Shown: positions 7,829-48,553, counted from the first letter of the stretch. The stretch is 64,000 nt of DNA from an uncultured bacterium (GCA_964409645.1 CAYPEK010000006.1:16823-80822); one strand, 5' to 3'. A program made the numbers and translations. Notes: generated by a model from the sequence alone, not told the origin.

Positions 7829-7860
7829 GCGGGGTATATCCTTTTCCTTATTTTATTTTC

Positions 7861-27062: not shown

Positions 27063-27312
27063 TGATCGCTCCTGTCAGATATGTTGAGAAAGATTGTACC
27101 ACAAAGTAGTCATGCCGCGCTTGCTTGTGCTGAGTAAAATCATCAGGAACTCCTTCAAACAAACTCGATGACGGCACAGAATTCGTGGATAGCCGCAAAA
27201 TGGAATGAAAAGGCATTTTATTGCATTTTCCGGATTCGTGATTATTTATATTCTATAGTTATCATTAACCGGAGAGCGCGGCGGCGGACACGCTGTGCCG
27301 CGCGGCGAGACA

Positions 27313-30535: not shown

Positions 30536-30604
30536 AGCGCGGCGGATTGAGAAAGACAGCGCCGTTTTTATAATACGAAGTGGAGAACGTCGGGTTCGGC
30601 GTAT

Positions 30605-31663: not shown

Positions 31664-31691
31664 AGCAGGCCCGTGCGAGTCGGACGCGGGG

Positions 31692-32822: not shown

Positions 32823-32890
32823 GCAGCCTCCACAAAGTTTGAACATCTCTGTGCTTTTCGCGGTTGCGCGCGTCTGATAAAATAAGTCTC

Positions 32891-34048: not shown

Positions 34049-34994
34049 TAACGTGACAAATAATAATAACGCGACAGTTTACGACTGCGTCGGGCTTGGG
34101 TTGTGCGTAGCCGACTACCAGTGTCTGCTCGATCACTATCCGGCAGCGGACGAGAAAACGGTTGCTGTAAAGCATATCCATCAGGGCGGCGCGCCGGTGG
34201 TGACGGCGCTGGTGTCGCTCGGAATATGGGGCCGCAAAACGGCGATGATCGGGATGGCGGGCGACGACGACGACGGCCGTTTCATAACGAGTGAGATGGA
34301 GAGTTACGGAGTGGATGCGTCGCGCGTGATTCTATCCAAGCACACGGAAACAAAGAAGGCGTTTGTGTGGATAGACGCGTCGAAAGGCAGCCGCGCGGTG
34401 GTGCTCTGCGGCGACCGGTCGCTGCCGCTTCCGGCGCGGGCGGCGGCGGAGAAGGCCCTGCCCCGCTGCCGTGTGTTTCACACTGACGGGCGCGAGACGG
34501 CAGTCGCGATCAAAGCGATGCGGCTCGTCAGGAAACGCGGTGGACAAACAGTGATCGACGCGGGCAGTCCGCGCGAGCGCATGGACGAACTGTTCTCGCT
34601 CTCGGATCACTTCGTGGCGTCGCACTCGTTCATGCGGAAGTTCTTCGGGGCGGGAATAAAACCTGAAAACGCGCTCGACAAAATCCTCGAACGCGGCCCG
34701 AAAGTCGCGCTGATCACTCTCGGCGAAAAAGGTTGCATCGGAGCAACCGAGGACGGCATGTTCCGCGTGCCGGGATTCAGCCGCAAGGGGTTCATCGTGG
34801 ACACGACCGGCGCGGGCGACGTGTTCCACGGCGGCTATATCCAAGGACTGCTTAGCGGCCTGCCGCCGGAGCGCTGCGCGGAGTTCGCCAACGCGGCGGC
34901 GTTCCTGTCCTGCGGCGAAATCGGCGCACGGGCGGGAATCCCTTCACTCAGGCAGATTACGGCGCTTATCAGAGAACGAAATTCCAAGAAATAA
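34035..34994 (+). CDS. PfkB-family (ribokinase-like) carbohydrate/nucleoside kinase
   Basis: The C-terminal anion-hole motif is DTTGAGDVFHGGYI, and the N-terminal GG dipeptide region GAPVVTALV is present. It overlaps the upstream gene by 14 bp. Confidence 0.85.
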   Translation: MKAGNNVTNNNNATVYDCVGLGLCVADYQCLLDHYPAADEKTVAVKHIHQGGAPVVTALVSLGIWGRKTAMIGMAGDDDDGRFITSEMESYGVDASRVILSKHTETKKAFVWIDASKGSRAVVLCGDRSLPLPARAAAEKALPRCRVFHTDGRETAVAIKAMRLVRKRGGQTVIDAGSPRERMDELFSLSDHFVASHSFMRKFFGAGIKPENALDKILERGPKVALITLGEKGCIGATEDGMFRVPGFSRKGFIVDTTGAGDVFHGGYIQGLLSGLPPERCAEFANAAAFLSCGEIGARAGIPSLRQITALIRERNSKK

Positions 34995-35108
34995 TCCTCG
35001 AACACGTAAGGCGCGTTTCGGTAACTTCATTATTATTGATGCGACGAAAATGATATAATTACCACGGCTGAGAAATAATCGGAAGCATAACGGGGCGGAG
35101 GACGGAAT

Positions 35109-37637
35109 ATGAAATTAACAAAAAAACCTGACGCAACAATCGTCGAAGGAAAACAACTGCGACTGACGATCACTCCCCTCGAAAACGGCGGCGTTTGTTA
35201 CGACATCGCCGCGCGCGAAAAAAACGGCTGGGTGACGGTTCTCGGCTCGGAACGTTCGACTGTGGCCGCGAATAAGAACACGAAAGGCTGCGGGCAGATG
35301 ATGCGAACCTCGCGGCGAATTATCGAGTTCCCGCAGGAACTCGTGTCGGCGGAGGCGAAGAACGGCATCGCGACTGTTATTCTGCGCGGAAAGGCGGACG
35401 GCCACACCGCCGAGCAGAAGATGACATTCGGCGACAATGACTCGTACATCAATGTTGTATCCACCGTTAAGCTCGGCCACCCGTCGAGGATCGCCGCCGC
35501 GGGCACGGCGCACGTTTTCATACCGGACGGGATGCTGTATTCGCAGTATGAACCGCTCGACTTCTGCTGGATACCCCATCTTCGCCGACTTCCCGAACAC
35601 ACGATCGGAGACCACGTTTTCAGGTCGCCCGCCGTGATATTCCAGTCTGGGAAAATTATGGGAGCGATCGTTCCCGACCTCGACGTGCTCGCGAAGAACC
35701 GGCCGATGCCGACCGCGCTCGACGCGAGGCTCGAAATACCGGGCATGCCCGCGCCGGCGTTCTGGTACGGTTTCTGCCGCTACAAGATCGACGGTCACGT
35801 ATTTTTCAAGCAGGACGAGCCGGGACGCAAGCCTTGCAAGGGCGATCTTGTGTACGGGTACGATCTGTTGGCAGGCGCGGACGAGCCGGAACGGCACGCG
35901 CACCGCAGGGTGGCAAAGCATCTGTGGGATCGGTACGGTGCGAAGCTGATCCGCAACGTCGAACCGCAGACGGTAACTTACGACGAATACGCGCGGCGCG
36001 CTTATGGGTTTGCGTTCGACCGCGGTAAAATATGGCGGGAGTTCGACCTCGGCGGTAAACGCGCGGGCGGCACGGTCTCGGTGACTTTCGCCGGCCCGGC
36101 GAAAACTAAGTTCATGAATCACGGCGAAATCGAGCGGATGCTGAAGATGCAGAAACTGATCCCGGGCATACACGGCGCGGCGACGGACAAACTTCTGCAA
36201 ACCGAATTCGCGAATGACGCTCTCGAATTTATCGTACATAACACCACAATAACGGCCCCTCCGCACATTCTGAATCAGTCGTGGTTCTGCAATCTACGGA
36301 CGGCATACGGGGCATTCGCCTATTCGGAGAAGCTCGGCAACGCTTCGCTCAAGGATTACGCATTGAAGATGAAAGAACTCGCACTGGGAGCACCCGGCGA
36401 CCTCGGATTTATGTACTCCGACTGCTACTGCCCGGACGACGGCGATCCGATATGGATGCAGGGAATGAAAGCGTTCGAGGCGGTCCGCGATTACCACTTG
36501 CCGGACAACGCGTGGACGGGCTGGTGGATGCTGCGCTGGTACGAAGAACTCGAAAAAGACGAGCGGCTGCTTGAACGCGCGAAAGCCGTCGGCGACGCGC
36601 TGGCGGCCTCGCAGCTCGAAAGCGGCGCGATCCCCGGCTGGGTGCGGGTGAGGCGCGGCGTGCCGACCGCGGGGGCGACGCTACGCGAGAGCGCGCAGAC
36701 GGCCGCGCCGGGGATGTTCCTCGCGAGGCTGGCGCGAGTGACCGGCGAAGCAAAATATCTGAAAGCGGCCGAGAGCGCCGCTAAGTTTCTGATCGACAAC
36801 ATATTCCCTGATAACATCTGGTGGGACTACGAAACATTCTTCTCGTGCTCTAAAAAAGATGTCGGAATGAAGGACGCCGGAACGGGACTGCACTGCATGA
36901 ACAACCTCTGCATATTCTGGACGGCGGAGATGATGCGCGAACTCGCGGACAAGACAAAGAAGAAAACATATCTCGAACATGGGCTGCGCGCGCTCGACCT
37001 GATGATCCTCTGGCAGCAGGCGTGGGACCCGCCCTATCTTTCCATCAACGGGTTCGGCGGGTTCGGCGTGATGAACACTGACGGCGAATGGAACGACGCG
37101 AGGCAGAGCATGTTCGCGGAATGCCTGACGGCGTACTACGAGCTGACGGGCGAGCGCGAGTATTTCGAGCGCGGGGTGGCGGCACTGCGGTCGTCGTTCA
37201 CAACGATGCTGATTCCGGAAAACCGTGCGGTCGCCCCCGGCAACATGAAAAGGTTTATCGCGAAGGACGAAGGCGCATCGTACGAGAATTACGGCCACCT
37301 CGGGTTTGACCGATGCGCGCCGGGATATCTGATGTTCGACTGGGGGAGCGGCGGAGCGTGCAGCGCGGCGGCGCGTCTGACCCGCAGGTTCGGCGATATA
37401 TACATCGACGCGGCGCGCGGAAACGCGTTCGGGCTCGACCTGTGCACGGCGGTGAAGTACAAGACCGGCGAAGGCTCGCTGTCGCTCGAAATCGACGCCC
37501 CGCATAACGACGGAAGAACTCTCATGCTGAAAGCCACGGGTTTGAAACAAGGAAAATACAAGCTCACGGTCAACGGCGCCGCGCGCGGCACGCATACGGC
37601 GGCAGCTTTGCGGGACGGTATAGATGTAGAGCTTTGA
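35109..37637 (+). CDS. Large hypothetical protein (842 aa), possibly an (alpha/alpha)6-toroid glycoside-hydrolase-like fold
   Basis: GGAGGA lies 7 nt upstream of the ATG. There is no signal peptide. The Trp/Tyr-rich C-terminal half (WTGWWMLRWYEELEKDERLLERAKAVGDALAASQLESGAIPGW) is reminiscent of (alpha/alpha)6 hydrolases. No catalytic motif is confidently identified. Confidence 0.55.
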   Translation: MKLTKKPDATIVEGKQLRLTITPLENGGVCYDIAAREKNGWVTVLGSERSTVAANKNTKGCGQMMRTSRRIIEFPQELVSAEAKNGIATVILRGKADGHTAEQKMTFGDNDSYINVVSTVKLGHPSRIAAAGTAHVFIPDGMLYSQYEPLDFCWIPHLRRLPEHTIGDHVFRSPAVIFQSGKIMGAIVPDLDVLAKNRPMPTALDARLEIPGMPAPAFWYGFCRYKIDGHVFFKQDEPGRKPCKGDLVYGYDLLAGADEPERHAHRRVAKHLWDRYGAKLIRNVEPQTVTYDEYARRAYGFAFDRGKIWREFDLGGKRAGGTVSVTFAGPAKTKFMNHGEIERMLKMQKLIPGIHGAATDKLLQTEFANDALEFIVHNTTITAPPHILNQSWFCNLRTAYGAFAYSEKLGNASLKDYALKMKELALGAPGDLGFMYSDCYCPDDGDPIWMQGMKAFEAVRDYHLPDNAWTGWWMLRWYEELEKDERLLERAKAVGDALAASQLESGAIPGWVRVRRGVPTAGATLRESAQTAAPGMFLARLARVTGEAKYLKAAESAAKFLIDNIFPDNIWWDYETFFSCSKKDVGMKDAGTGLHCMNNLCIFWTAEMMRELADKTKKKTYLEHGLRALDLMILWQQAWDPPYLSINGFGGFGVMNTDGEWNDARQSMFAECLTAYYELTGEREYFERGVAALRSSFTTMLIPENRAVAPGNMKRFIAKDEGASYENYGHLGFDRCAPGYLMFDWGSGGACSAAARLTRRFGDIYIDAARGNAFGLDLCTAVKYKTGEGSLSLEIDAPHNDGRTLMLKATGLKQGKYKLTVNGAARGTHTAAALRDGIDVEL

Positions 37638-37656
37638 ACTCGGCCGGAGGTGACAA

Positions 37657-38796
37657 ATGACATCTCGCGAACGCGTGAAAGCCGCGGCGAAGCGCAAGCC
37701 GGTGGATAAGATTCCGCTGATGCTCTGGCTCGAACCGCACACGACGTTGAAGCTTGCCACGGGGCCGATGCCGCCGCGCAATCCGCTGTACAGAGGCGTT
37801 TTCGACGGACTGCGCCTGCTGAGCGACAACCTGCCCTCGAAGGAACTCCGCAACGGCGCGCCGCTGCTCGCTTACGCGGTGCAGGCGGATTACCAGCGCG
37901 AGCTCGGCGCGGACATCGTCGATTTCCACTTCTGCATCTACCCGCTGATGGTGAAGAACTTTACTCTGAACAGAGACGGCTTTTCGGTGACCGACATTTA
38001 CGGCGTAACGCGCGGCATGGGTGGCATGTACCTCGAATCGACGGGCCACCCGTGCGAAACGAAGGAAGCCCTCGACCAATACGTCTTCCCCGACCTGTCG
38101 AACCCGCTGCGATACTCGCACATCGCGGCCTACCGCGCGATGCACCCGGATGCGGCGATAGCGGTGATGTGCCCCGGCGTGCAGGACTGGTCGCAGCAGT
38201 GGCACAAAATGGAGAAGCTGTATGGCGGAATGATACTCTACCCCGACACGATCGAGCGGTTCTTCCGCAAAATGGCGGAACACACGCTTCAGATAATCCG
38301 CGGCGTGCTCCGCGCGGGCGCCGACATCGTTCTCATCGGCGACGATTACGGAACACACAACAGCATGTTGATGTCTAAAAAGATGTGGGAACGGTTTACG
38401 TTTCCGTGCCTGAAAATGCAATGCGAAGAGATACACCGGCACGGAGGGATCGCGATGCTGCATTCTTGCGGATTCGTCATGCCGTTACTGGATAAGATAG
38501 TCGAGGCCGGGGTGGACATGCTGCATCCGCTTCAGCAGACGGCGGGCAACGACCTATCGGCGGCGAAGGCCGCATACGGGGACCGGCTGACGTTTGTCAC
38601 CGGCTTGGACGTGATGACGCTTTCGACGGCCGGACCGGAGGAGGTGCGGGAGTCGATACTGGCGGCGGCGCGGGCGGCGGCGCCCGGCGGCGGTTTTGTC
38701 CTTTGCACGACAAATTATCTTCAGGTTGACACACCGCTGGAAAATATAGATGTAATGTTCAATACTATTAAAGATATACAGAACGGGAGGTTTTGA
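37657..38796 (+). CDS. Uroporphyrinogen decarboxylase (URO-D) family protein, MtaA/CmuA-like
   Basis: The URO-D TIM-barrel region is GADIVLIGDDYGTHNSMLMSKKMWERF ... MLHSCG. GGAGGTGA lies upstream of the start. Confidence 0.8.
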   Translation: MTSRERVKAAAKRKPVDKIPLMLWLEPHTTLKLATGPMPPRNPLYRGVFDGLRLLSDNLPSKELRNGAPLLAYAVQADYQRELGADIVDFHFCIYPLMVKNFTLNRDGFSVTDIYGVTRGMGGMYLESTGHPCETKEALDQYVFPDLSNPLRYSHIAAYRAMHPDAAIAVMCPGVQDWSQQWHKMEKLYGGMILYPDTIERFFRKMAEHTLQIIRGVLRAGADIVLIGDDYGTHNSMLMSKKMWERFTFPCLKMQCEEIHRHGGIAMLHSCGFVMPLLDKIVEAGVDMLHPLQQTAGNDLSAAKAAYGDRLTFVTGLDVMTLSTAGPEEVRESILAAARAAAPGGGFVLCTTNYLQVDTPLENIDVMFNTIKDIQNGRF

Positions 38797-38804
38797 GAAA
38801 CGCC

Positions 38805-39941
38805 ATGCCATGCAAAAGCATACTCACAAAAGTAATGATCTTCGCATTTCTGGCAATGTTCGTCGCGGCAGCGCCCGGATGTGCCAAGGAAACCACGGAA
38901 AAAAACAAGAGTAAGACCAAGACAACGGCTAAAAAGTCGGAGCCTAAAAAGGCAACGAGCCAGACCACGGAAGCCGAAGGCGCGTTCATCTACGGCAAGC
39001 AAGCGCCTGACATCAACGTGGTGGACGCCGGCGGCAAACCGATTTCTCTCGACGACTACAAGAATAAAACGGTCGTCCTCGTGTTCTGGGCCGCCGAGTG
39101 CGACGTCTGCAAAAAGCAGATTAAGGATCTCGAAGTCGGCATCTCGAAAAAGAAGAACGACGTAGCGATACTTGCAATAACGCAGAATGTGAATCCTGAT
39201 AAAAACCGGGACGCGGCAGACGAATTGAAAAAGTCCAGCAAGACGGCGGTCGCCTTGTTCGATACAAACAACCAGACGGCAACCGTATATCAAATGTCCG
39301 GAATCCCGTATTTCGTGCTGATCGACAAGAAAGGCCGTCTGTCCGGGTCGGGAGTTTTCTCGGTTACGCAGAAGCTGCAGAGCGACACATTTGTAAACGA
39401 CGTGATCACGATCGACAAAGGCGGAAAAATCAATCAGTGCGAGTTCGCCGAGCTCGCAACGCCCGAAAAATACGCGAAAATGATCGGCAAAGAGCCGCCG
39501 AATTTCAAGCTGACGGACCTCAACGGAAACGAGGAGTCGCCCCTGTTTTATAAAGGATTCACAAACCTGCTGCTGGTGTTCTGGTCGCCATCTTGCCCGC
39601 ACTGCCGGCGCGAGCTGCCGAGGCTCGAAAATTTATACAACAAAAAAGGCAAAGACCTTAACCTGAAAATAGTAAGCGTGGTGGGTGTGCCGGACAAGAA
39701 GGACAAAACATTCGACGAAATAGTGGCCACCGCGCGGCTGATCGCCCTGCAGGATAAGATCAGTTTCCCGGTGGTTCTGGACACCGGGATGAAACAGCGA
39801 GTCGCATACAATGTCGAGGGTGTTCCCTCCCTGTTTCTGGTGGACATGAACGGAAAAATTCGCAACGCGTGGAGCGGCGAATCACCCAACGTTGGAATGA
39901 ACATAGAGTGTGCGATCGAAGAAGCCGGCAAAGGCAGGTGA
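38805..39941 (+). CDS. Lipoprotein with two tandem thioredoxin-fold (TlpA/ResA-like) domains
   Basis: The lipobox is AAAPGC, preceded by GGGAGG about 14 nt upstream. Domain 1 carries WAAECDVCKK (CxxC) and domain 2 carries WSPSCPHCRREL (CPHC). Each domain has the TlpA-like LVFW / ...PxxFLID pattern. Confidence 0.8.
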   Translation: MPCKSILTKVMIFAFLAMFVAAAPGCAKETTEKNKSKTKTTAKKSEPKKATSQTTEAEGAFIYGKQAPDINVVDAGGKPISLDDYKNKTVVLVFWAAECDVCKKQIKDLEVGISKKKNDVAILAITQNVNPDKNRDAADELKKSSKTAVALFDTNNQTATVYQMSGIPYFVLIDKKGRLSGSGVFSVTQKLQSDTFVNDVITIDKGGKINQCEFAELATPEKYAKMIGKEPPNFKLTDLNGNEESPLFYKGFTNLLLVFWSPSCPHCRRELPRLENLYNKKGKDLNLKIVSVVGVPDKKDKTFDEIVATARLIALQDKISFPVVLDTGMKQRVAYNVEGVPSLFLVDMNGKIRNAWSGESPNVGMNIECAIEEAGKGR

Positions 39942-39942
39942 C

Positions 39943-42639
39943 ATGCCGGTGAGCGCGGAGAAAAAAAGCGGCAGCGGCGAAAATACCGCTCGCGCGGCGG
40001 AGCCCAACCGGAACCTGTGGTTCTGGACAGCGGGCGTTTTTCTCGCATCGGCCGCTTTCTATATCAAATCCGTTGCGCCTGATTTTCTCTTCGACGACAA
40101 CCCTGAATTCATAGCTACATCGCGGTATCTCGGCATCGCTCACCCTCCGGGATATCCGCTTATTTCGCTTATCGGCAAGCTGTTCTCTTACACCGCCCCG
40201 GGAACCGCGGGCATGCCGGTTAACCTGCTCTCCGCTTTCGCCGGCGCGGTTGCGGTCACTCTCGGATTCCTCCTCATATACAGAGCGACCCGCTGGATCG
40301 CCCCGTCGCTGATCGGCGCGGGAATGATTCTCACATCGAGGCTGTTCTGGGAACAGGCCGGTCAGGTGGATGTTTACGCCGTCAACGGCATGTTTTTGTT
40401 CGCAACCCTTCACTTGATCTGGAGCCTTGACCGATCGCGCCGGGACGCAGCGCGAATCATCGCGCTCTCGGCGATTTTCATTCTCGCCCTCTTCAACCAC
40501 TACACGATGGTGCTCGTTTTCCCTGCTTACGCCGTGTATATCTTCTGGCTTTACAGAAGAAGTTTCGACCGGCTGTTGAAGATAATTCCGACGGTTATAC
40601 TCGCGGCGGCGGTCGCGTTTTCGGTTCTTATGTATCTGCCGCTGCGTTCAGCGTCCGGCCCGGTGATGAACTGGGACGAGCAGACGAAAGTAAGCGATTT
40701 TTTTAAGCACGTGAAGGGAGTTGACCTGCGGACGGCTACGCCGCGCGTGCCTCTTGCGGTCAAGTGGCGGTTCGTCGAGGACTATGCGGTGCGCGCGTGG
40801 CAGGACAGATCGCCCGCGCTGCTCGTGTTGCTTCCTCTCGGTTTCTGGAGCCTGTTTAAAAAAAAGTCGGCGTTCGGCCGGCGGCGCGGCGCAATCGTCG
40901 CCGCATCGTGGTTCCTGCTATTCGCGGGCTATGTGCTGTTGCCTAACTATCTCTATGGGCCGCGCGCTTCGTACGTCGTGAAATCATTCCACAGCACATC
41001 GCTCATGATGCTCGGATTCATAATGGGGTTCGGCGCATTCGAAGCGTTGTCGCTCGTGAAGCGGGCAAAGCTCCCGTGGGGCGCTCTGGCCGCGGTCGCG
41101 GCGGTGCTGATCGGCCACTCGGCCCTTGCCGGCCGCTCGACGGCGGACCACGCAAACGACCTGATGGCGACTCGGTACGGCCGCAACATGCTGCTGTCCG
41201 CTTCAAGGGACGCGATTGTTTTCTCAACACTCGAGACGGAAACGTTTCCCATGATGAACCTTCGCGCCACACATTACCTTCGGCGCGACATCACGCTGCA
41301 CGGCAGACACGGAGACCCGCTGATCGCCGCCCTCGCCATGGGCCGCAAGGAACAATCCTACCTGCGAATAAACGAAGTGGCCGATATTCAGAAATATGCG
41401 CTTATCAGCACTATATATCAACGCCCGATATTCTTCACAAAGCGTCTGGATATTCAGGACCGCCCCGACCTTGCTGTCGTAACGAACGGACTTCTCTACC
41501 AGCTCGCGTTCGGCGGCAAACCTCTCTACTGGCCGGACCCGTGGCTGCGAATCGACCAGACAGGCATCGACTACAAATATAAGGGATATGACACAATCCA
41601 GAGGAATGTCATCAGCCGTTACCTCGTCATGCATGGAGAGCATTACCTCGAAATCGGACAGTGGGATGACGCTATAAACCTGTTCGACCGCGCGGCGGAA
41701 TTTAACCCCGGCTCACGGTTCCTGCGGGCAAACCTTGGAGCAATTTTTCTGCGGATTAACGACTTTAAGCGCGCGCGCAAGGAATACGAAGAAGGACTCG
41801 CCGCGGACCCGGAAAATGTCGAGACGAGCATAGACACGGTCGCGATGTACAGCAACCTGTCGTTTATATACGGCACGTTCGGCGAGAAGGACAAGGCGCG
41901 CGAAGCGATGGAAACCGCGGTGCGCCTCGACCCGGAAAACGGATTGCTTCGTGTCAACTTAGGTAAAACGTATTGGCATCTCGAGCGGTGGGTGGACGCG
42001 ATCCGTCAGCTCGAAGCCGCGAAGAAATACGGCATTACGGATAACGCCGCAGTCTATAATATTCTCGGAATCTGCTACGAAAAGATAGGCAAATACAAGA
42101 AGGCGGAGGAGAACTACGAGCTCGCGATCACTACAAACCCCGCGCTCGTGGATGTGTACAGAGACTACGGCGTCTTCTGCGCCTACATCAAAAATGATCC
42201 GAAAAAAGCAATCGAGTTGCTGAACATTTATCTCGAACTCGCACCCGGTGTTCAGGACGAGCCCGACATCAGGGTGAACCTCGGTTTTCTGAACAAAAGT
42301 GTGGGCAACTATCAAGCGTCGGCGGCGGCATTCAGGTCCGCCTTGCTTCTCGGCGCGGACACCACGCTGAGAAAAACGGCGATCATCTACACCGCGCTCG
42401 CGGACTCACTCGACAAGATCGACCTTCCCGCCGATGCAAAAGAAGCCTACGAGAAAGGCCTAGTCGGCACGGAAGACTATCCCAAGATTCTCGTCGAATA
42501 CGCGGACTTCCTCGACAGGCGCAAAATGAACACCGCCTACGCGCTGAAACTGCTCGACCGCTACATGACAATTTCTCCCAACCCGGAGGATAGAATCCGG
42601 GTCGATCTCCTTAGAGCAAAGTTGAAAGCCAGAAAATAG
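39943..42639 (+). CDS. DUF2723-type polytopic membrane protein (GT-C-like) fused to C-terminal TPR repeats
   Basis: The N-terminal third carries hydrophobic segments predicted as TM helices and the motifs FLFDDNPEFI and HPPGYPL typical of DUF2723. The C-terminal 350 aa are TPR repeats. The gene stops at TAG. Confidence 0.75.
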   Translation: MPVSAEKKSGSGENTARAAEPNRNLWFWTAGVFLASAAFYIKSVAPDFLFDDNPEFIATSRYLGIAHPPGYPLISLIGKLFSYTAPGTAGMPVNLLSAFAGAVAVTLGFLLIYRATRWIAPSLIGAGMILTSRLFWEQAGQVDVYAVNGMFLFATLHLIWSLDRSRRDAARIIALSAIFILALFNHYTMVLVFPAYAVYIFWLYRRSFDRLLKIIPTVILAAAVAFSVLMYLPLRSASGPVMNWDEQTKVSDFFKHVKGVDLRTATPRVPLAVKWRFVEDYAVRAWQDRSPALLVLLPLGFWSLFKKKSAFGRRRGAIVAASWFLLFAGYVLLPNYLYGPRASYVVKSFHSTSLMMLGFIMGFGAFEALSLVKRAKLPWGALAAVAAVLIGHSALAGRSTADHANDLMATRYGRNMLLSASRDAIVFSTLETETFPMMNLRATHYLRRDITLHGRHGDPLIAALAMGRKEQSYLRINEVADIQKYALISTIYQRPIFFTKRLDIQDRPDLAVVTNGLLYQLAFGGKPLYWPDPWLRIDQTGIDYKYKGYDTIQRNVISRYLVMHGEHYLEIGQWDDAINLFDRAAEFNPGSRFLRANLGAIFLRINDFKRARKEYEEGLAADPENVETSIDTVAMYSNLSFIYGTFGEKDKAREAMETAVRLDPENGLLRVNLGKTYWHLERWVDAIRQLEAAKKYGITDNAAVYNILGICYEKIGKYKKAEENYELAITTNPALVDVYRDYGVFCAYIKNDPKKAIELLNIYLELAPGVQDEPDIRVNLGFLNKSVGNYQASAAAFRSALLLGADTTLRKTAIIYTALADSLDKIDLPADAKEAYEKGLVGTEDYPKILVEYADFLDRRKMNTAYALKLLDRYMTISPNPEDRIRVDLLRAKLKARK

Positions 42640-42669
42640 GAAGCGCTCCCGCGCGCAGGCGGCCGCAAA

Positions 42670-43602
42670 ATGCTGCTCTCGATCTCGATAGTCAACCATA
42701 ACAACCGCGAAATGCTGGGCGGCTGCCTCGCGAGTCTGCGGGAAAGCATTCGCGGCATGGACTGCGAGGTCATCGTCATCGACAACGCTTCCGCCGACGG
42801 CAGTGCGGACATGGTACGTGCGAAATATCCCGAGATGCTGCTTTCCGTCAACGACAAGCGGCTCGGATTCGCAGCGAACCAGAATCAGGGGCTACGGCTC
42901 GCAAAAGGCGAGTTCATAGCGCTGCTCAATAACGATACAATCGTCAAGCCGGGCGCGTTTCAGAACCTCGTGACGTTCATGCGCGACAATTCACACGCCG
43001 GACTCGTCGGCCCGAAGCTGCTCAACCCGGACGGGTCGGTTCAGGAATCCTGCTTCCGCACCCCCACACTCGGCGTCCTCTTTAACGACGCCTTTTTCAT
43101 CAGTTCGATCCTTCCAAGCAATACAACGGTGGGTGGATTCAAAAAATGGAAGCACGACGAGACACGCGAAGTACCATCGCTGAGCGGCGCATGTCTTTTC
43201 GCCCGCGCGGCGGCGATTTCGGAGGTCGGGCTTTTAGACGAGCGGTTCTTTATGTACTTTGAGGATCACGACTGGTGCCTGCGGTTCCGCCGCGCGGGAT
43301 GGAAGGTGTGCTTCACGCCGGGCGCGGAGATAATCCACTTCGGCGGCGGCAGCGCCGGACTTCTGGGACACGATCGCTTCAACGAATTCTACAGAGGAAT
43401 GAATACGTTTTACGAGAAGCATTACGGGCGCGGATCGTTGCCGGCGGTTGCGCTGCTCAACGTAACCGGCGCTGCGCTGCGTATAGCCGCGTGGGGTGCA
43501 TTATCGCCATTCAGTCCTCGCTTCAGAGAGAATTCTCACACGCGCTCGCCATATTTCAAACGCCGCATCAGTTGGTATTTGTCATCAAAAAACAAAAGCT
43601 GA
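42670..43602 (+). CDS. Family 2 glycosyltransferase (GT-A fold)
   Basis: LSISIVNHNNREML, a DNASxDGS motif (DxD region) and FMYFEDHDWCLR are present. Confidence 0.85.
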   Translation: MLLSISIVNHNNREMLGGCLASLRESIRGMDCEVIVIDNASADGSADMVRAKYPEMLLSVNDKRLGFAANQNQGLRLAKGEFIALLNNDTIVKPGAFQNLVTFMRDNSHAGLVGPKLLNPDGSVQESCFRTPTLGVLFNDAFFISSILPSNTTVGGFKKWKHDETREVPSLSGACLFARAAAISEVGLLDERFFMYFEDHDWCLRFRRAGWKVCFTPGAEIIHFGGGSAGLLGHDRFNEFYRGMNTFYEKHYGRGSLPAVALLNVTGAALRIAAWGALSPFSPRFRENSHTRSPYFKRRISWYLSSKNKS

Positions 43603-43627: not shown

Positions 43628-43831
43628 TCAGCGTTCGATTCCGTGATAGCAATAATAGCAGAGAACTTTCAGCACCACCGGCCTGCCCTGCGCATCCTGA
43701 GAGTATGAAATCTTTAGGCAGTCGCGGCAGCAGAATGCGCCGCACGCTTCGCACCGGCTATGCAGTCCGATCTCGAAATCCGCCCCGCACACCGAACACG
43801 TCCCCGGCGCAATGCCTTCGGAATAACTCAT
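43628..43831 (-). CDS. Small Cys-rich (four CxxC) zinc-ribbon-like protein
   Basis: CSVCG...CEACG...CRDC...CYYC; the 67-aa ORF lies on the same strand immediately downstream of the SxtJ-like gene. Confidence 0.45.
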   Translation of the reverse strand: MSYSEGIAPGTCSVCGADFEIGLHSRCEACGAFCCRDCLKISYSQDAQGRPVVLKVLCYYCYHGIER

Positions 43832-43864
43832 ATTGATATTCCGCGGATAAATATTTTCATGATT

Positions 43865-44293
43865 TTAAAACCGCTGCTCGTATCGCTTTTTGTCGAACGA
43901 GCTCTCGGGGCGCGAGTCCCAGTATGAAGGCGCTTTCGGGTCGCGGCGGCGCTTCATCGGGTCTTTGCCGAACAGCCGCATGAGCAGCCCCATCGGGGTG
44001 AAAACGAGAAAATATACAACCGAAAGAAGGATCGTGGTACTGATGCGATTCAGTACCATCGCTGCCGCGGTCCAGCCTTTGAACACCGGCATTAGCAGCG
44101 GTGTCGCGACGAATCTTATGAGGATGAAAAACGCAGAGAGTCCGCCGAAAATGTACGCCCCCGTGTGGCGACCCCGGAGATAAAGCAAAGCCGCGAGAAT
44201 GCCGAAGAAAAACACGCCGACAACGCCGAACTGGCGCGCGACTTTTGTCCCGCTGGGGGGCGATTCCTTTTTTATTTCACCTTCGGTCAACAT
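43865..44293 (-). CDS. SxtJ-like small membrane protein
   Basis: The 142-aa protein has three hydrophobic helices and a basic C-terminus. It lies 17 bp downstream of the carbamoyltransferase, the usual partner of SxtJ-family proteins (recollection, not searched). Confidence 0.65.
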   Translation of the reverse strand: MLTEGEIKKESPPSGTKVARQFGVVGVFFFGILAALLYLRGRHTGAYIFGGLSAFFILIRFVATPLLMPVFKGWTAAAMVLNRISTTILLSVVYFLVFTPMGLLMRLFGKDPMKRRRDPKAPSYWDSRPESSFDKKRYEQRF

Positions 44294-44309
44294 AACGCCG
44301 CGCCGGCCG

Positions 44310-46127
44310 TCAGTCCGGCGCGAACTCCTTCAGCCAGTCCTCCGGAATCTGCACCGGCGGCTGTTGCTTTTTGTCGATCAAGAACCGGCCCATTATAAGG
44401 TAGTCCATGTTGGTGCGCATGAAGCAGCGGTAAGCATCTTCCGGCGAGCAGACGATCGGTTCTCCACGCACGTTGTACGACGTATTTATTATCAGCCCGC
44501 ATCCGGTCAGCTTGCGGAACTCTTCGATTGTATCATGGTAGAGTGGATTGTCGTCCCGGGAAACAGTCTGCACGCGCGCGGAGAAATCGACATGCGTGAT
44601 CGCGGGAACGGACGAGCGGATGTTGTACAGTTTATCCAGTCCCTTCCGGCCGAGTTCCTCCTGCGTGAGATCGCGCCGGATTTCGTTTTTCACGGGCGCG
44701 ACGAGGAGCATGTACGGGCTTTCGCGGTCGAGGTCGAAGTATTCCGACACGCATTCGGCGAGCACGGTCGGCGCAAACGGCCGGAACGACTCGCGGAACT
44801 TTGTCTTGAGATTCATCACGCTCTGCATTTCGCGCGAACGGGCGTCGCCGATAATGCTGCGCGAGCCGAGCGCGCGCGGGCCGAACTCCATCCGCCCCTG
44901 AAACCAGCCGATCACATTCTGCCCATCTATGAGCCGCGCGACCCGCGACGGTATTTCCGCCTGTTCGAGCTTTTCGTGCGCGATGTCTTTTTCTTTCAGG
45001 AATTTTCCGATCTCGTCGTCCGAAAACGCCGGGCCGAGATATGAGGCGTGTTGCCTGTCACGTCCCGATGCCGGGTCGCGTGGTTTGTCGAGATAGTGAT
45101 GCCACGCGGTCATTGCCGCGCCGAGCGCGCCGCCCGCGTCGCCCGCCGCCGGCTGTATCCATATATCGTCGTAAATTCCCTCCCGCAGCAGCAGCCCGTT
45201 CGCGACGCAGTTCAACGCAACGCCACCCGCGAGACAGAGATTTCTCATGCCGGTTTCTTTTCTGATGTGGCGCGCCATTTTGACGATGATCTCTTCGGTG
45301 ACAACCTGCACCGAGCGCGCGAGGTCCATGTAGATATCGGATATCGGCGTCTCCGGCTTGCGCGGCGACACGCCGAACAGCCTGTCGAATTTGCCGTTCG
45401 TCATCCTGAGCCCTGCCATGTATCCGAAATACCTGAGGTTCAGGCGGAACGAGCCGTCATCTTTGACGTCGATCAGTTCACGCTTGATTACGTCCACGTA
45501 CTTCGGTTCGCCGTAAGGCGCGAGACCCATAAGTTTGTACTCGCCGGAGTTCACCCTGAATCCGCAGAAATAAGTAAACGCCGAATAGAGAAGTCCGAGC
45601 GAGTGCGGAAATTTGATTTCGGATTTGAGACTGACGCGGTTTTCGCGACCGATGCCCCAGCTTGTCGTGGTCCATTCGCCGACGCCGTCCGTCGTCAGAA
45701 TCGCGGCCTCGTCGAACGGCGATGGAAAAAATGCCGCGGCGGCATGTGATTCGTGGTGCTCGGGGAAAATCATCGGGCCGTTGTAGTCGAGCTCCTTCGC
45801 GAGCGTTTCCTTGAGCCACAGCTTGTATTTTAGCCACTGCGGAAGCGCCATCATGAACGACGGAAGCCCGACGGGCGCATAAGAGAGATATGTTAGAAGC
45901 AGTCTCTCGAATTTTATAAACGGTTTTTCGTAGAAGGCGACGTAGTCGAGCCCGTCCGGACCGATGCCGGCCTCGCGAAGACAATAGGCAACCGCGCTCG
46001 CCGGGTAAGAAGCGTCGTGCTTCTTTCTGGTGAAGCGTTCTTCCTGTGCGGCGGCAAGGATGTCGCCATCGCGCACGAGACACGCGGCGCTGTCGTGGTA
46101 ATATGCTGAAATTCCGAGGATGTTCAT
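44310..46127 (-). CDS. Carbamoyltransferase, NodU/CmcH family
   Basis: The N-terminal Kae1/YgjD-like domain starts MNILGISAYYHDSAACLVRDGDILAAAQEERFTRKKHD. The C-terminal carbamoyltransferase domain has FGPRALGSRSI and INTSYNVRGEPIV. Confidence 0.9.
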   Translation of the reverse strand: MNILGISAYYHDSAACLVRDGDILAAAQEERFTRKKHDASYPASAVAYCLREAGIGPDGLDYVAFYEKPFIKFERLLLTYLSYAPVGLPSFMMALPQWLKYKLWLKETLAKELDYNGPMIFPEHHESHAAAAFFPSPFDEAAILTTDGVGEWTTTSWGIGRENRVSLKSEIKFPHSLGLLYSAFTYFCGFRVNSGEYKLMGLAPYGEPKYVDVIKRELIDVKDDGSFRLNLRYFGYMAGLRMTNGKFDRLFGVSPRKPETPISDIYMDLARSVQVVTEEIIVKMARHIRKETGMRNLCLAGGVALNCVANGLLLREGIYDDIWIQPAAGDAGGALGAAMTAWHHYLDKPRDPASGRDRQHASYLGPAFSDDEIGKFLKEKDIAHEKLEQAEIPSRVARLIDGQNVIGWFQGRMEFGPRALGSRSIIGDARSREMQSVMNLKTKFRESFRPFAPTVLAECVSEYFDLDRESPYMLLVAPVKNEIRRDLTQEELGRKGLDKLYNIRSSVPAITHVDFSARVQTVSRDDNPLYHDTIEEFRKLTGCGLIINTSYNVRGEPIVCSPEDAYRCFMRTNMDYLIMGRFLIDKKQQPPVQIPEDWLKEFAPD

Positions 46128-46152
46128 TCCGGAAGCGCGCCCTGCGCCCTGC

Positions 46153-46305
46153 TCAGAATATCGTATAAATGAACGGGGCGACCGACGGCGCCAAGGCCGA
46201 CACGACGATCACCGCGCCGAGAAAAACAAGTACTACGATGATCGGTATCAGCCACCAGAGTTTCCGTTCCTTTAGAAAGAGAAAGAATTCCTTAAAAAAA
46301 CTCAT
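46153..46305 (-). CDS. 50-aa DUF5989-like single-TM protein, absent from the ORF track because it is under 60 aa
   Basis: Manual translation of the minus strand gives MSFFKEFFLFLKERKLWWLIPIIVVLVFLGAVIVVSALAPSVAPFIYTIF. It starts at ATG 46303-46305, stops at TGA, and ends 26 bp upstream of the carbamoyltransferase start. Confidence 0.6.
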   Translation of the reverse strand: MSFFKEFFLFLKERKLWWLIPIIVVLVFLGAVIVVSALAPSVAPFIYTIF

Positions 46306-46442
46306 CGCTGTTTTCCGCGGCCCGGGAGGCCGGCGCCATCTCCTTATATTCCGCGCGGCACTCCACCCTGCCCGGCCGCCGGATCCTTTTGATTATTTTA
46401 GGATATAGGTGTTCGCGTGACAACAATACTCCCGGACAGCCG

Positions 46443-47567
46443 TTATTCCGGCTCGAAACGCGAGAGGCGTCTGAGCGCGTCGAGCTGTTCCGTCCGGCCG
46501 AGTTTTGCATCGAGAACCGCTTTTTTCAGCATGGAGATCGTCTTATCATAACCGGGCCGGTCCACCGGATACGGGATGCCGTCCTTTCCGCCGTGTGCGA
46601 AGCTGAACCGCACGGGATCACGGAAGCTTGCCTCGTCGCCATAGAGGATTTCGGACAGCAGCGTGAGCGCCCGCAGCGTGGCCGGGCCTACGTTGGGAGT
46701 GCCGATCAGCGACACAAAATCGCCGGGCGCGCGTTCGTACGCGCTGACAAGCGTCTTTCGGATGCGGTCCGGATGGATGTCCGCGGCAAGTATCCGGTGC
46801 CGCGCGGGCAGGTTGAGCGCCTGCACGCGTTTGAGTTCCGCGACGAGCTTTTCAGGGTTTTCGAGCGCGATGTTCGCGGTACGCGCGCGGACCGCCGCGC
46901 TCTCCTCAGCCACGAGGTTCAGGGTGAGCTGGCCGCGCGAGTCGCAGCACACCGCCGCGTGCGGCTCGCAGACGAAATCCGAGACGTCCTCGCCGAGCCA
47001 GTGATACCGCCGCGCGTAACGCGTCTCTTCGTTCATGCCCTGCTGCACCACCACCCATCCGCCGTTTGACGTGAATGCGAACATGTGCTGGTATATCTGG
47101 TAGCCGTCCTGAACGGCGGCGCTATCCACTTTGGCCGACATGCGGCTTGCATAGACGAGCTGCGCGGCGTCGGCGGAGATCGAGTCGCCGGCGGCGATAA
47201 TCTCGTCGGGCGTTTTGCGGGACGCGCCACCCTTGCCGCCGCAGAAATACAGCCCCAGCTCTCTCTGAATGTCCTTTGTGCCTTCCTTGAGCGCGCCGCA
47301 GGTCGTGGTGGTCACACCGCTCGAATGCCAGTCGAACCCGAGCACGCAGCCGAGTGCCTGAAACCAGAACGGGTCCGCGAGCCGCTTCAGAACAAACTCC
47401 GGGCCGGACTCGCACACCATCGTCTCGACGATCGCCCTCGAGAGCTTCACCATCCTGTCGAACAGCCACCTCGGCGCTTTCCCGCCGTGCAGCGGTAGAT
47501 TCGCAACACCTGTTCGCGCCATTGCGCCCCCCTCTTTCATCCGAATTATAACTCCGGGGTGTGACAT
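46443..47567 (-). CDS. DUF763 domain protein
   Basis: ARTGVANLPLHGGKAPRWLFDRMVKLSRAIVE resembles the DUF763 N-terminus. The start is ambiguous: ATGs at 47567, 47540 and 47522, with the last preceded by GAGGGGGG. Confidence 0.75.
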   Translation of the reverse strand: MSHPGVIIRMKEGGAMARTGVANLPLHGGKAPRWLFDRMVKLSRAIVETMVCESGPEFVLKRLADPFWFQALGCVLGFDWHSSGVTTTTCGALKEGTKDIQRELGLYFCGGKGGASRKTPDEIIAAGDSISADAAQLVYASRMSAKVDSAAVQDGYQIYQHMFAFTSNGGWVVVQQGMNEETRYARRYHWLGEDVSDFVCEPHAAVCCDSRGQLTLNLVAEESAAVRARTANIALENPEKLVAELKRVQALNLPARHRILAADIHPDRIRKTLVSAYERAPGDFVSLIGTPNVGPATLRALTLLSEILYGDEASFRDPVRFSFAHGGKDGIPYPVDRPGYDKTISMLKKAVLDAKLGRTEQLDALRRLSRFEPE

Positions 47568-47650
47568 CGGCGTAAATTATCAAAAAGTATGCGCGCGCGG
47601 CGCGGGCCGTGGTACAATGGACGTCAACAAGAGACAGGAGAGACGACACC

Positions 47651-48553
47651 ATGAAAAGAACGGCGGCAATTCTCTTATCAGCAATTATCGCGGCGGCATA
47701 TTTCGGGGCGTCCGCGCGCGCGGCGGAAATAAAGGTCGTCAAGAACATCGTGTTCTCGAACGCGGGCGGTGTCGAGATAAAAGGCGACATCTACATTCCG
47801 GAGGGGAAAGGCCCGTTTCCCGGCATGATATACATCCACGGCGGCGGCTTCGTCGCGGGCTCGAAGGATTTTAAGCCGCAGACTCAGATACCGACCTTCC
47901 TCGCCGAGAACGGTTTCATTTCATTCAGCGTGAACTACAGGCTGCTGCAGGAGGGCGGAGTGTTTCCGAACTGCACGTACGACGTGAAGTGCGCGCTGTG
48001 CTGGTTCAAAAAGAACGGCGCGCAGTACGGGCTCGACCCGAAGCGAGTGGGCGTGCTGGGCGAGAGCGCGGGCGCGTACCTCGCGGCGATGCTCGGCGTG
48101 ACGGCGGGGATGCCGCAGTTCGCGGGGCAGTGCCCGGCTGCGGAAGGGTGCGACGACAGCGTGACGGCGGTGGTTGCTGTGTATCCGCCGACAGATTTCG
48201 CAACGCTGAAAACGAAGTTGACCCAGATGATAAAGAATGAAATGATCCGCTACGGAAAGATAAAAGATAAGGAAGTCATGAAGAAATATATGGTGGAGCA
48301 GTCGCCGGTGACATACGCTAAGAACGCCGCGCCGACACTCCTTATCCACGGAGCAAAGGACCTGCTCGTGAACGTGGAGCAGAGCCGTGAGTTTTACGAC
48401 GTGCTGAAAGCAGCCGGGAGAGAAGTCGAGTATCTCGAATTGCCGAACGCACCGCACAGTTTCTTCAGCGAGGATTACGACAGCGGCGACGGCGCCACTG
48501 CGCGTGCCCGTGCGCTCGCGTTTCTGAACAAATGGCTGAAGAGCGAAAAATAA
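47651..48553 (+). CDS. Secreted alpha/beta hydrolase (esterase/lipase; Abhydrolase_3/BD-FAE-like)
   Basis: The signal peptide is MKRTAAILLSAIIAAAYFGASARA. The oxyanion-hole motif is HGGGF, the nucleophile elbow is GESAG and the C-terminal His box is PHSF. Confidence 0.8.
   Translation: MKRTAAILLSAIIAAAYFGASARAAEIKVVKNIVFSNAGGVEIKGDIYIPEGKGPFPGMIYIHGGGFVAGSKDFKPQTQIPTFLAENGFISFSVNYRLLQEGGVFPNCTYDVKCALCWFKKNGAQYGLDPKRVGVLGESAGAYLAAMLGVTAGMPQFAGQCPAAEGCDDSVTAVVAVYPPTDFATLKTKLTQMIKNEMIRYGKIKDKEVMKKYMVEQSPVTYAKNAAPTLLIHGAKDLLVNVEQSREFYDVLKAAGREVEYLELPNAPHSFFSEDYDSGDGATARARALAFLNKWLKSEK

Follow-up and report, generated by a model that had tools for sequence, protein, structure and literature searches.

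A carbamoyltransferase/SxtJ/DUF5989 operon of an uncultured bacterium and its probable product, a membrane-tethered O-carbamoyltransferase complex

A carbamoyltransferase gene flanked by genes for two very small membrane proteins raises the question of whether these proteins belong to the enzyme, and on what acceptor such an enzyme would act. The window analysed here, a 64,000-nucleotide stretch of DNA from an uncultured bacterium, carries such a locus on its minus strand, where a first-pass annotation had described four ORFs beside GT2 and DUF2723-TPR genes. All four ORFs (50, 605, 142 and 67 aa) were found in place on that strand, and both neighbours were recovered by Pfam, giving the following features (basis of assignment in parentheses):

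46395..46423, minus strand: promoter-like site TTGTCA-17-TAAAAT, 10/12 match, ~90 nt upstream of the DUF5989 start
46153..46305, minus strand: DUF5989 micro-protein, 50 aa (Pfam PF19451, full length)
44310..46127, minus strand: class III (TobZ/GdmN/NovN-type) O-carbamoyltransferase (CT), 605 aa (Pfam and PDB matches)
43865..44293, minus strand: SxtJ-family small membrane protein, 142 aa (Pfam PF19588)
43628..43831, minus strand: zinc-ribbon/treble-clef-like ORF with four CxxC motifs plus C34, 67 aa (sequence)
42670-43602, plus strand: GT2 neighbour (Pfam)
39910-42639, plus strand: TMEM260-like/DUF2723 plus TPR neighbour (Pfam)

The four co-directional minus-strand genes span 46305-43628 in the order DUF5989, CT, SxtJ, Zn-ribbon ORF, separated by 25, 16 and 33 intervening bases, respectively; the spacings of 26 bp and 17 bp reported earlier for the first two junctions come from subtracting coordinates and so exceed the real gaps by one base each, and the coordinates themselves are correct. 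The TTGTCA-17-TAAAAT site is a possible, if weak, candidate for the operon's own promoter, as the region scanned contains four promoter-like sites and shuffled versions of it 1.9 +/- 1.4. A terminator scan gave nothing convincing 3' of the Zn-ribbon ORF, and Rfam gave zero matches over the whole window. Purifying selection was detected on all four genes, and the locus is a real, ordinary member of a known and named module, sxtI/sxtJ/sxtK.

By homology, the 605-aa protein is a class III O-carbamoyltransferase built of a Kae1-like and a YrdC-like domain, with Pfam matches to Carbam_trans_N (328 bits, cutoff 24) and Carbam_trans_C (236 bits, cutoff 27), and PDB matches over residues 3-599 led by 7xb6 (3.5e-91) and followed by NovN, GdmN and TobZ (5e-74). 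The earlier label of NodU/CmcH family is apt in the broad sense of relatedness, but not for NodU proper, since the NCBIfam equivalog NF041651 scored 136.9 bits against a cutoff of 1000. Within the Kae1-like N-domain, H11, H124, H128, D147 and D330 are invariant and align with their counterparts in 7xb6 and NovN, and the YrdC-like C-domain carries an invariant GPRALGSRS at 416-424; the GPRALGxRS motif is cited in the literature as the SxtI catalytic site, and the class III mechanism and GdmN-derived residue roles have been described (PMC9633730). The YrdC-like domain is predicted to convert carbamoyl phosphate and ATP to carbamoyl-AMP, and the Kae1-like domain, using an Fe site at H124/H128/D147/D330 and H11 as general base, would pass the carbamoyl group to an acceptor hydroxyl. 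The AlphaFold2 (AF2) model of CT has a pTM of 0.85, with a tail (588-605; pLDDT 47-63) that is invariant, acidic and flexible, including D597, W598, E601 and D605. Using crude regular expressions, the tail motif was found in 51 of 74 loci with SxtJ and 3 of 7 without, several of the contigs lacking SxtJ being short; it showed no clean co-variation with the presence of SxtJ or with the SxtJ tail motif. Greater hydrophobicity of the acceptor-binding hairpin (68-105) than in soluble carbamoyltransferases was considered and was not borne out (mean hydropathy 0.16-0.44 versus 0.21 in 7xb6).

The 50-aa ORF matches DUF5989 over its full length at 68.3 bits (cutoff 27), above the Pfam gathering threshold and in agreement with the family named for it at first reading, and 815 homologues were found. 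Its product begins with a basic, amphipathic segment (KERK-WW), followed by a single TM helix and, at the C-terminus, the invariant sequence APFIYTIF, the invariant residues being R14, K15, W18, L19, P21, G30, A43-Y47 and F50, and its dN/dS against relatives with CT 77-80% identical is 0.11-0.22. The first-pass annotation had flagged this gene as missing from its ORF track, and public gene callers behave likewise: it is uncalled in the public annotation of two related loci (L081 and L086) and replaced by a wrong-strand 47-aa ORF in a third (L084), and the exact 50-aa protein is recorded from JGI, ENA and Logan, not NCBI. The case illustrates clearly how standard annotation can drop a functional gene of 50 residues or call it on the wrong strand. 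No paper found by literature search names DUF5989; we infer that it is the SxtK family from size (165 bp), position after sxtJ and the suomilide cluster table, not from sequence.

For the 142-aa ORF, the SxtJ assignment likewise passes the Pfam gathering threshold (28.8 bits, cutoff 24.4), covering positions 3-99 of the 99-position model. Hydrophobic segments lie at 22-39, 46-63 and 88-105, with a basic amphipathic helix at 64-87, and a profile of 87 sequences shows a kink motif, T99-P100-x-G102, and a conserved basic tail, R106...S123-Y124-W125...R128...Y138-x-x-R/Q-F142. The dN/dS, against relatives with CT 77-80% identical, is 0.19. A family profile matched 17,480 cluster representatives (clusters at 50% identity); SxtJ, like SxtK, has been labelled 'unknown' ever since the description of the saxitoxin cluster.

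Recurrence of the trio was assessed in 80 genomes from ~20 phyla, including CPR bacteria, with CT 57-68% identical. SxtJ adjoins CT, directly downstream, in 74 of the 80 loci and DUF5989 does so in 55, both always co-directional, and look-ups seeded from DUF5989 or SxtJ recovered the full trio in five of five cases. The statement in the first-pass annotation that the trio recurs across phyla is borne out by these counts, with both Pfam models matched and synteny kept, and the literature, as also stated there, assigns it no substrate. The commonest gene order is CT-J-K (48/80 loci), which is the sxtI-J-K order; the present operon has the order K-CT-J, which no locus outside this lineage showed. 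In about a dozen amply flanked loci SxtJ occurs without DUF5989, which is therefore not strictly required in cis, and no small hydrophobic ORF that might be a divergent DUF5989 analogue was found beside the module in these loci. More than 100 CT homologues from many phyla are at least 66% identical, and identities of 57-80% over ~20 phyla are unusually tight for a tailoring enzyme and suggest one conserved acceptor.

These data bear on the most sceptical account of the locus, that the 50-aa and 67-aa ORFs are chance ORFs and only CT is real. The 50-aa ORF is indeed left out of several public gene calls, and GC-rich DNA such as this yields many overlapping spurious ORFs; against this stand the full-length DUF5989 match, the homologues, the low dN/dS and a position kept in 55/80 loci, which together refute the account for the 50-aa gene, and, for the Zn-ribbon ORF, 71% identity in L084 and a pN of 0.17 against a saturated pS of 0.85. 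Its probability is in our estimation close to nil. The four CxxC motifs noted earlier for the 67-aa ORF are present 3' of SxtJ (C12/15, C27/30, C35/38 and C58/61), in a pattern that resembles a cross-brace in its Cys spacing only, FYVE (PF01363) scoring 21.5 bits, under the cutoff of 27.8. Inclusion of this ORF in the module did not hold, however: it is confined to the nearest lineage (L084/L085), where it keeps its position, and is absent from all 80 cross-phylum loci, and its product would be a lineage-specific accessory encoded by the fourth gene of the operon.

Whether the three conserved proteins form one physical unit was addressed through fusions and charge. CT and SxtJ are fused in frame in two loci from two phyla (L042 and L056), and SxtJ and DUF5989 in one (P0370). 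Frameshift artefacts were rejected for L042 and L056, the other frames being full of stops and encoding no displaced tail, and a third candidate CT-SxtJ fusion (L079) was discarded, its J-containing segment lying in another frame and its CT ending normally at 604 aa. The last 13 residues of CT have a net charge of -2.9, compared to +3.4 for the SxtJ tail, +2.5 for its amphipathic helix and +2.6 for the DUF5989 N-terminus. The acidic CT tail is missing in stand-alone 7xb6 and TobZ, and a linker takes its place in the CT-SxtJ fusions. Since CT is fused to SxtJ and its acidic tail faces basic segments of SxtJ and DUF5989, the docking elements would all lie on the cytoplasmic face, and an N-in/C-in topology of SxtJ gives +7.5 inside versus +0.95 outside.

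We consider it probable that the locus encodes a membrane-tethered SxtI/SxtJ/SxtK-type O-carbamoyltransferase complex, with docking of the enzyme and a membrane-associated acceptor. Judging by fusions, synteny and charge, SxtJ and DUF5989 would be obligate small membrane subunits and not independent genes, SxtJ with both termini cytoplasmic and DUF5989 N-in, C-out; the acidic CT tail may dock on the basic amphipathic helix and tail of SxtJ and on the N-terminal helix of DUF5989, which would position the CT active site against the cytoplasmic membrane, on its inner side. The 'SxtI/J/K complex' of reviews is an assumption, and the fusion and charge evidence, which is new, gives the phrase 'hypothesised to work in conjunction' a concrete form, a tethering architecture open to test. 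Against the complex, the AF2 model of SxtJ (pLDDT 75), which has a continuous helix at 64-107 and hence three crossings with the C-terminus outside, conflicts with the topology drawn from fusions and charge. The description of SxtJ as a three-helix protein is accordingly right as to its three hydrophobic segments, but the fusions and charge bias favour two cytoplasmic termini, which is impossible with three full crossings. Furthermore, there are only two CT-J fusions and one J-K fusion, and in MAGs an apparent fusion can arise from misassembly.

The same conserved features could be explained, in a reading we regard as unlikely, by a product-handling device (minimal exporter, flippase helper or self-protection), in which SxtJ and DUF5989 are co-inherited with CT through a shared action on one molecule and do not serve as anchors. 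This would account for conserved transmembrane residues (P21/G30 in DUF5989, T99-P100-x-G102 in SxtJ) and for the invariant APFIYTIF on the non-cytoplasmic side, out of reach of CT, and it fits with product export by saxitoxin clusters and with extracytoplasmic GDSL partners, which imply a membrane-crossing substrate. Four helices in total are very small for a transporter, however, and saxitoxin clusters already contain dedicated MATE exporters; a Foldseek search of the SxtJ model against the PDB gave no match below E = 1.5 and no transporter-like structure, and in-frame CT-J fusions with complementary charged tails are more typical of subunits.

For the acceptor of the proposed tethered complex, gene neighbourhoods were compared across the 80 loci. 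The commonest neighbour class, beside the trio in 25/80 loci, comprises extracytoplasmic, TM-anchored GDSL/SGNH proteins, followed by glycosyltransferases (GT2, GT4, GT9) with sugar-nucleotide and heptose-pathway genes; apart from GDSL/SGNH, no class occurs in more than about 8 loci, and contexts are very heterogeneous. Together these two classes weakly favour an envelope glycoconjugate as acceptor. The first-pass annotation had argued for a glycan or lipid-linked acceptor from the local neighbours, and this argument survives only in its statistical form, through the rank of glycan enzymes among neighbour classes: the GT2 and DUF2723-TPR genes lie on the opposite strand, convergent on the operon and in a separate transcription unit, and in the closest relatives (CT 77-80% identical) they are replaced by GH31, GFO_IDH_MocA and rSAM genes. 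Assignment of the neighbouring GT2 as a polyprenyl-phosphate glycosyltransferase was also tried and rejected, with only generic GT-A matches. A search of the window for a GDSL/SGNH partner found none, giving only TPR matches at 55-56 kb.

The acceptor may, with less confidence than the tethering, be associated with the membrane or destined for export; in loci outside toxin clusters the likeliest candidate would be a glycoconjugate, either lipid-linked or part of the envelope, that receives its carbamoyl group on a primary hydroxyl before it is exported. Binding of the acceptor to a membrane need not be a general trait of the module, however, since in saxitoxin biosynthesis a soluble alkaloid is carbamoylated. 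Two other acceptors were weighed against the envelope glycoconjugate. A soluble cytoplasmic precursor (e.g., NDP-heptose or NDP-hexose), with the tether merely channelling product to membrane glycosyltransferases, would suit two loci (L091/L092) in which the trio lies within an NDP-heptose-like pathway (SIS, GHMP kinase, HAD phosphatase, nucleotidyltransferase, UDP-sugar dehydrogenase and epimerase), the recurrence of sugar-nucleotide enzymes among neighbours, and the existence of 7-O-carbamoyl-heptose in the Pseudomonas LPS core. We hold it to be distinctly unlikely, as such contexts form a minority of loci, the putative LPS-core enzyme WapO is, to our knowledge, described without such partners, and a soluble acceptor would leave the two dedicated and highly conserved membrane subunits unexplained.

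Tailoring of a secondary metabolite, in which the acceptor would be a small soluble compound produced by the radical-SAM, DUF362 and other genes nearby, is in our judgement very unlikely. The only described sxtI/J/K(/L) contexts are cyanobacterial natural-product clusters, two radical-SAM enzymes, DUF362/ferredoxin proteins, a PfkB kinase and a URO-D-like protein lie within 17 kb, and B12-radical-SAM genes recur near the trio in 4/80 loci and in L084. Yet Pfam searches of every large ORF at 21-58 kb gave none of the saxitoxin core genes (sxtA-type PKS-like enzyme, amidinotransferase, others), and sxt core genes, NRPS and PKS are all absent from the window; the radical-SAM block, which has GT2 as its last gene, runs on the opposite strand and converges on the operon, and neighbouring genes are not kept even at 77-80% CT identity. 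The 57-80% identity of CT over ~20 phyla, including CPR, favours one conserved acceptor over diverse products.

An envelope acceptor can also be put in a bolder form, which we offer tentatively and consider more doubtful than the tethered complex itself: the trio, often with an extracytoplasmic SGNH protein, may be an ancient, horizontally mobile machine that carbamoylates one conserved lipid-linked glycan or lipid in ~20 phyla, with the SGNH protein editing or relaying the carbamoyl groups and the saxitoxin/suomilide step recruited wholesale from this machine. If true, this would mean a widespread, unrecognised carbamoyl modification of bacterial envelopes and a new class of micro-protein-dependent enzyme tethering.

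Among known systems, the closest is sxtI/sxtJ/sxtK of the saxitoxin and suomilide clusters, with similar sizes (612/134/54 aa there versus 605/142/50 aa here), the same SxtI and SxtJ families, and adjacent, co-directional genes, often with the GDSL/SGNH gene sxtL next door; the present operon differs in its K-CT-J order, its extra Zn-ribbon gene and the lack of a GDSL partner in the window. TobZ (3VEN), GdmN (7VYJ), NovN (9S2T) and 7XB6 share with CT the Kae1-like and YrdC-like domains, a 2His+2Asp iron site, a His general base and GPRALGxRS, and a carbamoyl-AMP mechanism is therefore expected for CT. These are soluble stand-alone tailoring enzymes, about one third identical to CT; TobZ and 7XB6 stop short of the acidic tail, at about query residue 586-587, and GdmN and NovN have a dimerisation domain instead. 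Unlike the CT proposed here, none of them is known to depend on membrane partners. A precedent for action on an envelope glycan within this carbamoyltransferase superfamily is WapO (PA5005), a putative 7-O-carbamoyl-heptose transferase of the Pseudomonas LPS core, a glycan assembled on the cytoplasmic side of the inner membrane; heptose-pathway and GT9 genes are present in some trio loci as well. We know of no SxtJ or DUF5989 partners described for WapO. For the tether itself, the comparison is with DPM1 and DPM2/DPM3, and with Alg13/Alg14, as a mechanistic analogy only, these being eukaryotic and of unrelated fold and chemistry: a catalytic subunit without membrane spans is brought by one or two very small membrane proteins, via a short C-terminal interaction, to the side of a membrane that faces the cytoplasm, where it gains access to a lipid-linked substrate.

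Four co-directional ORFs form a minus-strand operon in the window, separated in gene order by 25, 16 and 33 nt:

46305-46153, minus strand: DUF5989 micro-protein, 50 aa (Pfam DUF5989, 68.3 bits, cutoff 27, full length)
46127-44310, minus strand: carbamoyltransferase (CT), 605 aa (Pfam Carbam_trans_N, 328 bits, and Carbam_trans_C, 236 bits)
44293-43865, minus strand: SxtJ-like protein, 142 aa (Pfam SxtJ, 28.8 bits, cutoff 24.4)
43831-43628, minus strand: zinc-ribbon ORF, 67 aa (four CxxC pairs; FYVE match below Pfam threshold)

The first-pass annotation had described these ORFs, including the 50-aa gene missing from the ORF track; all four were present, and both small proteins scored above their Pfam cutoffs when its proposed check with SxtJ and DUF5989 HMMs was run. 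Against relatives with CT 77-80% identical, dN/dS was 0.11-0.22 for the 50-aa gene, 0.09-0.14 for CT and 0.19 for SxtJ, and the zinc-ribbon ORF gave pN 0.17 and pS 0.85 (saturated); all four are therefore true coding genes, and a chance-ORF explanation for the small ORFs was excluded. A sigma-70-like site (TTGTCA-17-TAAAAT) ~90 nt 5' of the 50-aa gene is a tentative candidate for the operon's own promoter, and the ends of the 67-aa ORF and of a GT2 gene converging on it lie 25 nt apart. Immediately beyond the 5' end of the operon, likewise on the minus strand, lies a gene for a DUF763 protein (437 bits, 46443-47567), adjoined by a BD-FAE/alpha-beta-hydrolase esterase gene (47609-48553, plus strand); both were found in the same-organism contig L081 and were missing from the nearest relatives (L084-L087). 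An Rfam search of the whole 64 kb returned no family (tRNA, rRNA, riboswitch) at gathering score, and GC varied from 0.44 to 0.62 by segment and was low at 18-20 kb.

CT residues 3-599 aligned with solved class III carbamoyltransferases (7XB6, 3.5e-91; NovN; GdmN; TobZ, 5e-74). H11, H124, H128, D147, D330 and GPRALGSRS (416-424) were invariant in 71 family members, and their GdmN counterparts are the general base (H11), iron ligands (H124/H128/D147/D330) and adenylation site (PMC9633730). Class III enzymes form carbamoyl-AMP from carbamoyl phosphate and ATP, then transfer the carbamoyl group to a hydroxyl (PMC9633730). By homology, CT is predicted to be an ATP- and carbamoyl-phosphate-dependent O-carbamoyltransferase. 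In its AF2 model (pTM 0.85), pLDDT falls from 63 to 47 along the C-terminal tail (591-605), a region short of which TobZ and 7XB6 stop; despite the low pLDDT, W598 and D605 do not vary in this tail, and D597 and F602 hardly do.

The DUF5989 gene was overlooked elsewhere. In L081, the ENA record of the window's contig, nothing was called between DUF763 and CT (4279-4595), and the JGI copy (L082) has the 50-aa gene. For relative L084, a wrong-strand 47-aa ORF (7790-7933, minus) was called in place of an intact DUF5989 gene (7794-7949, plus), and relative L086 encodes an intact DUF5989 (about 7800-7955) with no gene called. The exact 50-aa protein is recorded in JGI, ENA and Logan and absent from NCBI, where the same contig's CT is present. 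The micro-protein is thus regularly missed, and such wrong-strand or absent calls are a systematic annotation gap for the family.

Homologues of CT number in the thousands; the top 120 were all at least 66% identical and spanned Verrucomicrobiota, KSB1, LCP-89, CPR and other lineages. A pattern scan restricted to one genome per species yielded 80 loci from ~20 phyla (CT 57-68% identical), in which the small genes were found with HMMs built from small-protein matches. SxtJ was present in 74 of these and DUF5989 in 55, always on the CT strand, bearing out the earlier claim that the trio recurs across phyla; SxtJ without DUF5989 occurred in ~12 loci with ample flanks. The prevailing order was CT-SxtJ-DUF5989 (48 loci), followed by CT-SxtJ (18), CT on its own (7, of which several lie on short contigs) and five further arrangements (7 together); the window's order, DUF5989-CT-SxtJ, was confined to its own lineage (L084-L087). 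All five reverse look-ups (three seeded with DUF5989, two with SxtJ) recovered the full trio, one being a flavobacterial CT-DUF5989-SxtJ locus whose divergent SxtJ was missed by Pfam and the gene table. An exhaustive profile search returned 17,480 SxtJ-family cluster representatives.

Several variants were recorded. A Planctomycetales MAG has two tandem DUF5989 copies after SxtJ (L035, 8225-8583), and in L090 (4775-6602) the CT beside an intact DUF5989 is split into at least seven frame-shifted pieces, which points to a pseudogene or to errors in a long-read assembly. CTs of the same subfamily in L055 and L077 (Rhodothermales), L072 and L078 (Trichodesmium) have no SxtJ or DUF5989 nearby and carry variant C-terminal tails, with eight residues of the 484-505 insertion missing in L055 and L077; they may be a partner-independent sub-lineage.

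In saxitoxin clusters, sxtI (1839 bp), sxtJ (405 bp) and sxtK (165 bp) are adjacent, the latter two being of 'unknown' function and only hypothesised to act together with SxtI; in the Nostoc suomilide cluster, an SGNH/GDSL hydrolase gene lies after genes resembling sxtI, sxtJ and sxtK. A literature search for 'DUF5989' found no mention. Judged from sequence, with DUF5989 equated to SxtK by size and position, the window module is a pan-bacterial SxtI/J/K trio. A natural-product tailoring step is a less likely role for the window module; evidently, toxin clusters took over the same module for a soluble alkaloid.

CT and SxtJ are a single protein of 734 or 739 aa in two phyla (L042, Aegiribacteria; L056, Pyrinomonadaceae), with a linker in place of the conserved CT tail; these are not simple frameshift artefacts, since the other frames contain stops throughout. 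L079 was rejected as a further candidate: its SxtJ segment lies in a different reading frame, and the CT stops as usual at 604 aa. SxtJ and DUF5989 are fused in P0370, from the profile search, with a 4-residue junction. The SxtJ profile (87 sequences) has hydrophobic segments at 22-39, 46-63 and 88-105, the third with a near-invariant T99-P100-x-G102, a basic amphipathic helix (64-87), and a conserved tail that runs from R106 to the very C-terminus. In DUF5989, two motifs are invariant, a juxtamembrane RK..WL.P and a terminal APFIY..F. Net charge was -2.9 +/- 1.4 for the last 13 CT residues; +3.4, +2.5, +1.7 and +0.95 for the SxtJ tail, amphipathic helix, N-terminus and loop 1; and +2.6 and 0 for the DUF5989 N- and C-termini. 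The CT fusions place the SxtJ N-terminus in the cytoplasm, and the DUF5989 fusion requires the SxtJ C-terminus and the basic N-terminus of DUF5989 to share one side of the membrane. This N-in/C-in arrangement gives +7.5 inside versus +0.95 outside, and a three-crossing topology gives no charge bias. The third segment may be kinked or re-entrant, against the continuous helix (64-107) of the AF2 model (pLDDT 75, only 16 sequences), for which Foldseek found no analogue in the PDB.

We infer that the acidic, flexible CT tail docks onto the basic segments that SxtJ and DUF5989 expose to the cytoplasm. The two would be dedicated membrane-tethering subunits that keep the acceptor site of the Kae1-like domain at the inner leaflet; less probably, they could be an export or handling device. 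The acceptor may be a membrane-associated or exported molecule.

Clustering of all ORFs in the 80 loci gave no further universal partner; the commonest were GDSL/SGNH-like proteins with an N-terminal membrane anchor, in some cases also with TPR repeats (three BLAST clusters, 25 distinct loci), paralleling sxtL of saxitoxin clusters. Among 203 nearest neighbours, Pfam assigned Lipase_GDSL_2 (18), GT2 (11), GT4 (5), GT9 (3) and sugar epimerases/dehydratases (4), besides 100-150 other families. A glycoconjugate, either lipid-linked or of the envelope, is the acceptor weakly favoured by the recurrent SGNH partner outside the cytoplasm and by the glycan-pathway neighbours, and WapO, a putative heptose carbamoyltransferase of Pseudomonas LPS core, offers a conceptual precedent. 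A glycan or lipid-linked acceptor had been proposed from the window's GT2 and DUF2723-TPR genes; glycan-pathway neighbours do recur over the 80 loci, but the window's own (a generic GT-A GT2 and a TMEM260-like/TPR gene) belong to a long plus-strand run (27168-43602) convergent on the operon and are replaced in the nearest relatives by GH31, GFO_IDH_MocA and radical-SAM genes. No GDSL partner was found in the window. The zinc-ribbon ORF, listed after SxtJ in the first-pass annotation, does not belong to the conserved module: it directly follows SxtJ only in L084/L085 (71% identity) and in none of the 80 loci.

The plus-strand run encodes, in order, a B12-binding radical SAM protein, a 660-aa TPR protein, DUF362, a second radical SAM protein, DUF362 with a 4Fe-4S ferredoxin domain, a PfkB sugar kinase, an 842-aa protein with weak GH76/GH47-like matches, URO-D-like, double AhpC/thioredoxin, TMEM260-like GT-C with TPR, and GT2 proteins, and possibly makes up a so far uncharacterised pathway for glycans or for protein O-glycosylation. 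In a groundwater lineage (L091, 621-14159; L092), CT-SxtJ-DUF5989 lies inside a nucleotide-sugar cluster resembling the NDP-heptose pathway (SIS isomerase, GHMP kinase, HAD phosphatase, two nucleotidyltransferases, UDP-sugar dehydrogenase, epimerase), which may hint at heptose as the acceptor; a nucleotide sugar is itself a possible acceptor. In a Flagellimonas-like flavobacterium (L088/L089, 1-14150), CT-DUF5989-SxtJ, with start/stop overlaps, a divergent GDSL gene and an SxtJ too divergent for Pfam's precomputed matches, is flanked by a SusC/SusD pair on one side and, on the other, by the GH10/GH115/SASA genes of a polysaccharide utilisation locus of xylan type.

The module's wide distribution and close conservation, its natural fusions, complementary charged tails and recurrent SGNH partner open the long-standing SxtJ/SxtK question to experiment, and concern the family rather than the window. 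The module is already known and named, and the window locus, which shows every testable defining feature of SxtI/J/K-type modules and class III CTs, is another member. Its CT, first labelled NodU/CmcH-family, keeps the Carbam_trans_N/C domains but differs from NodU, scoring far under the NCBIfam equivalog cutoff (137 versus 1000 bits); the zinc-ribbon ORF is not a FYVE domain, and the locus is not a saxitoxin cluster. Compared with described cyanobacterial sxt cases, it lacks a GDSL neighbour, has the DUF5989-CT-SxtJ order and carries an extra, lineage-specific zinc-ribbon gene.
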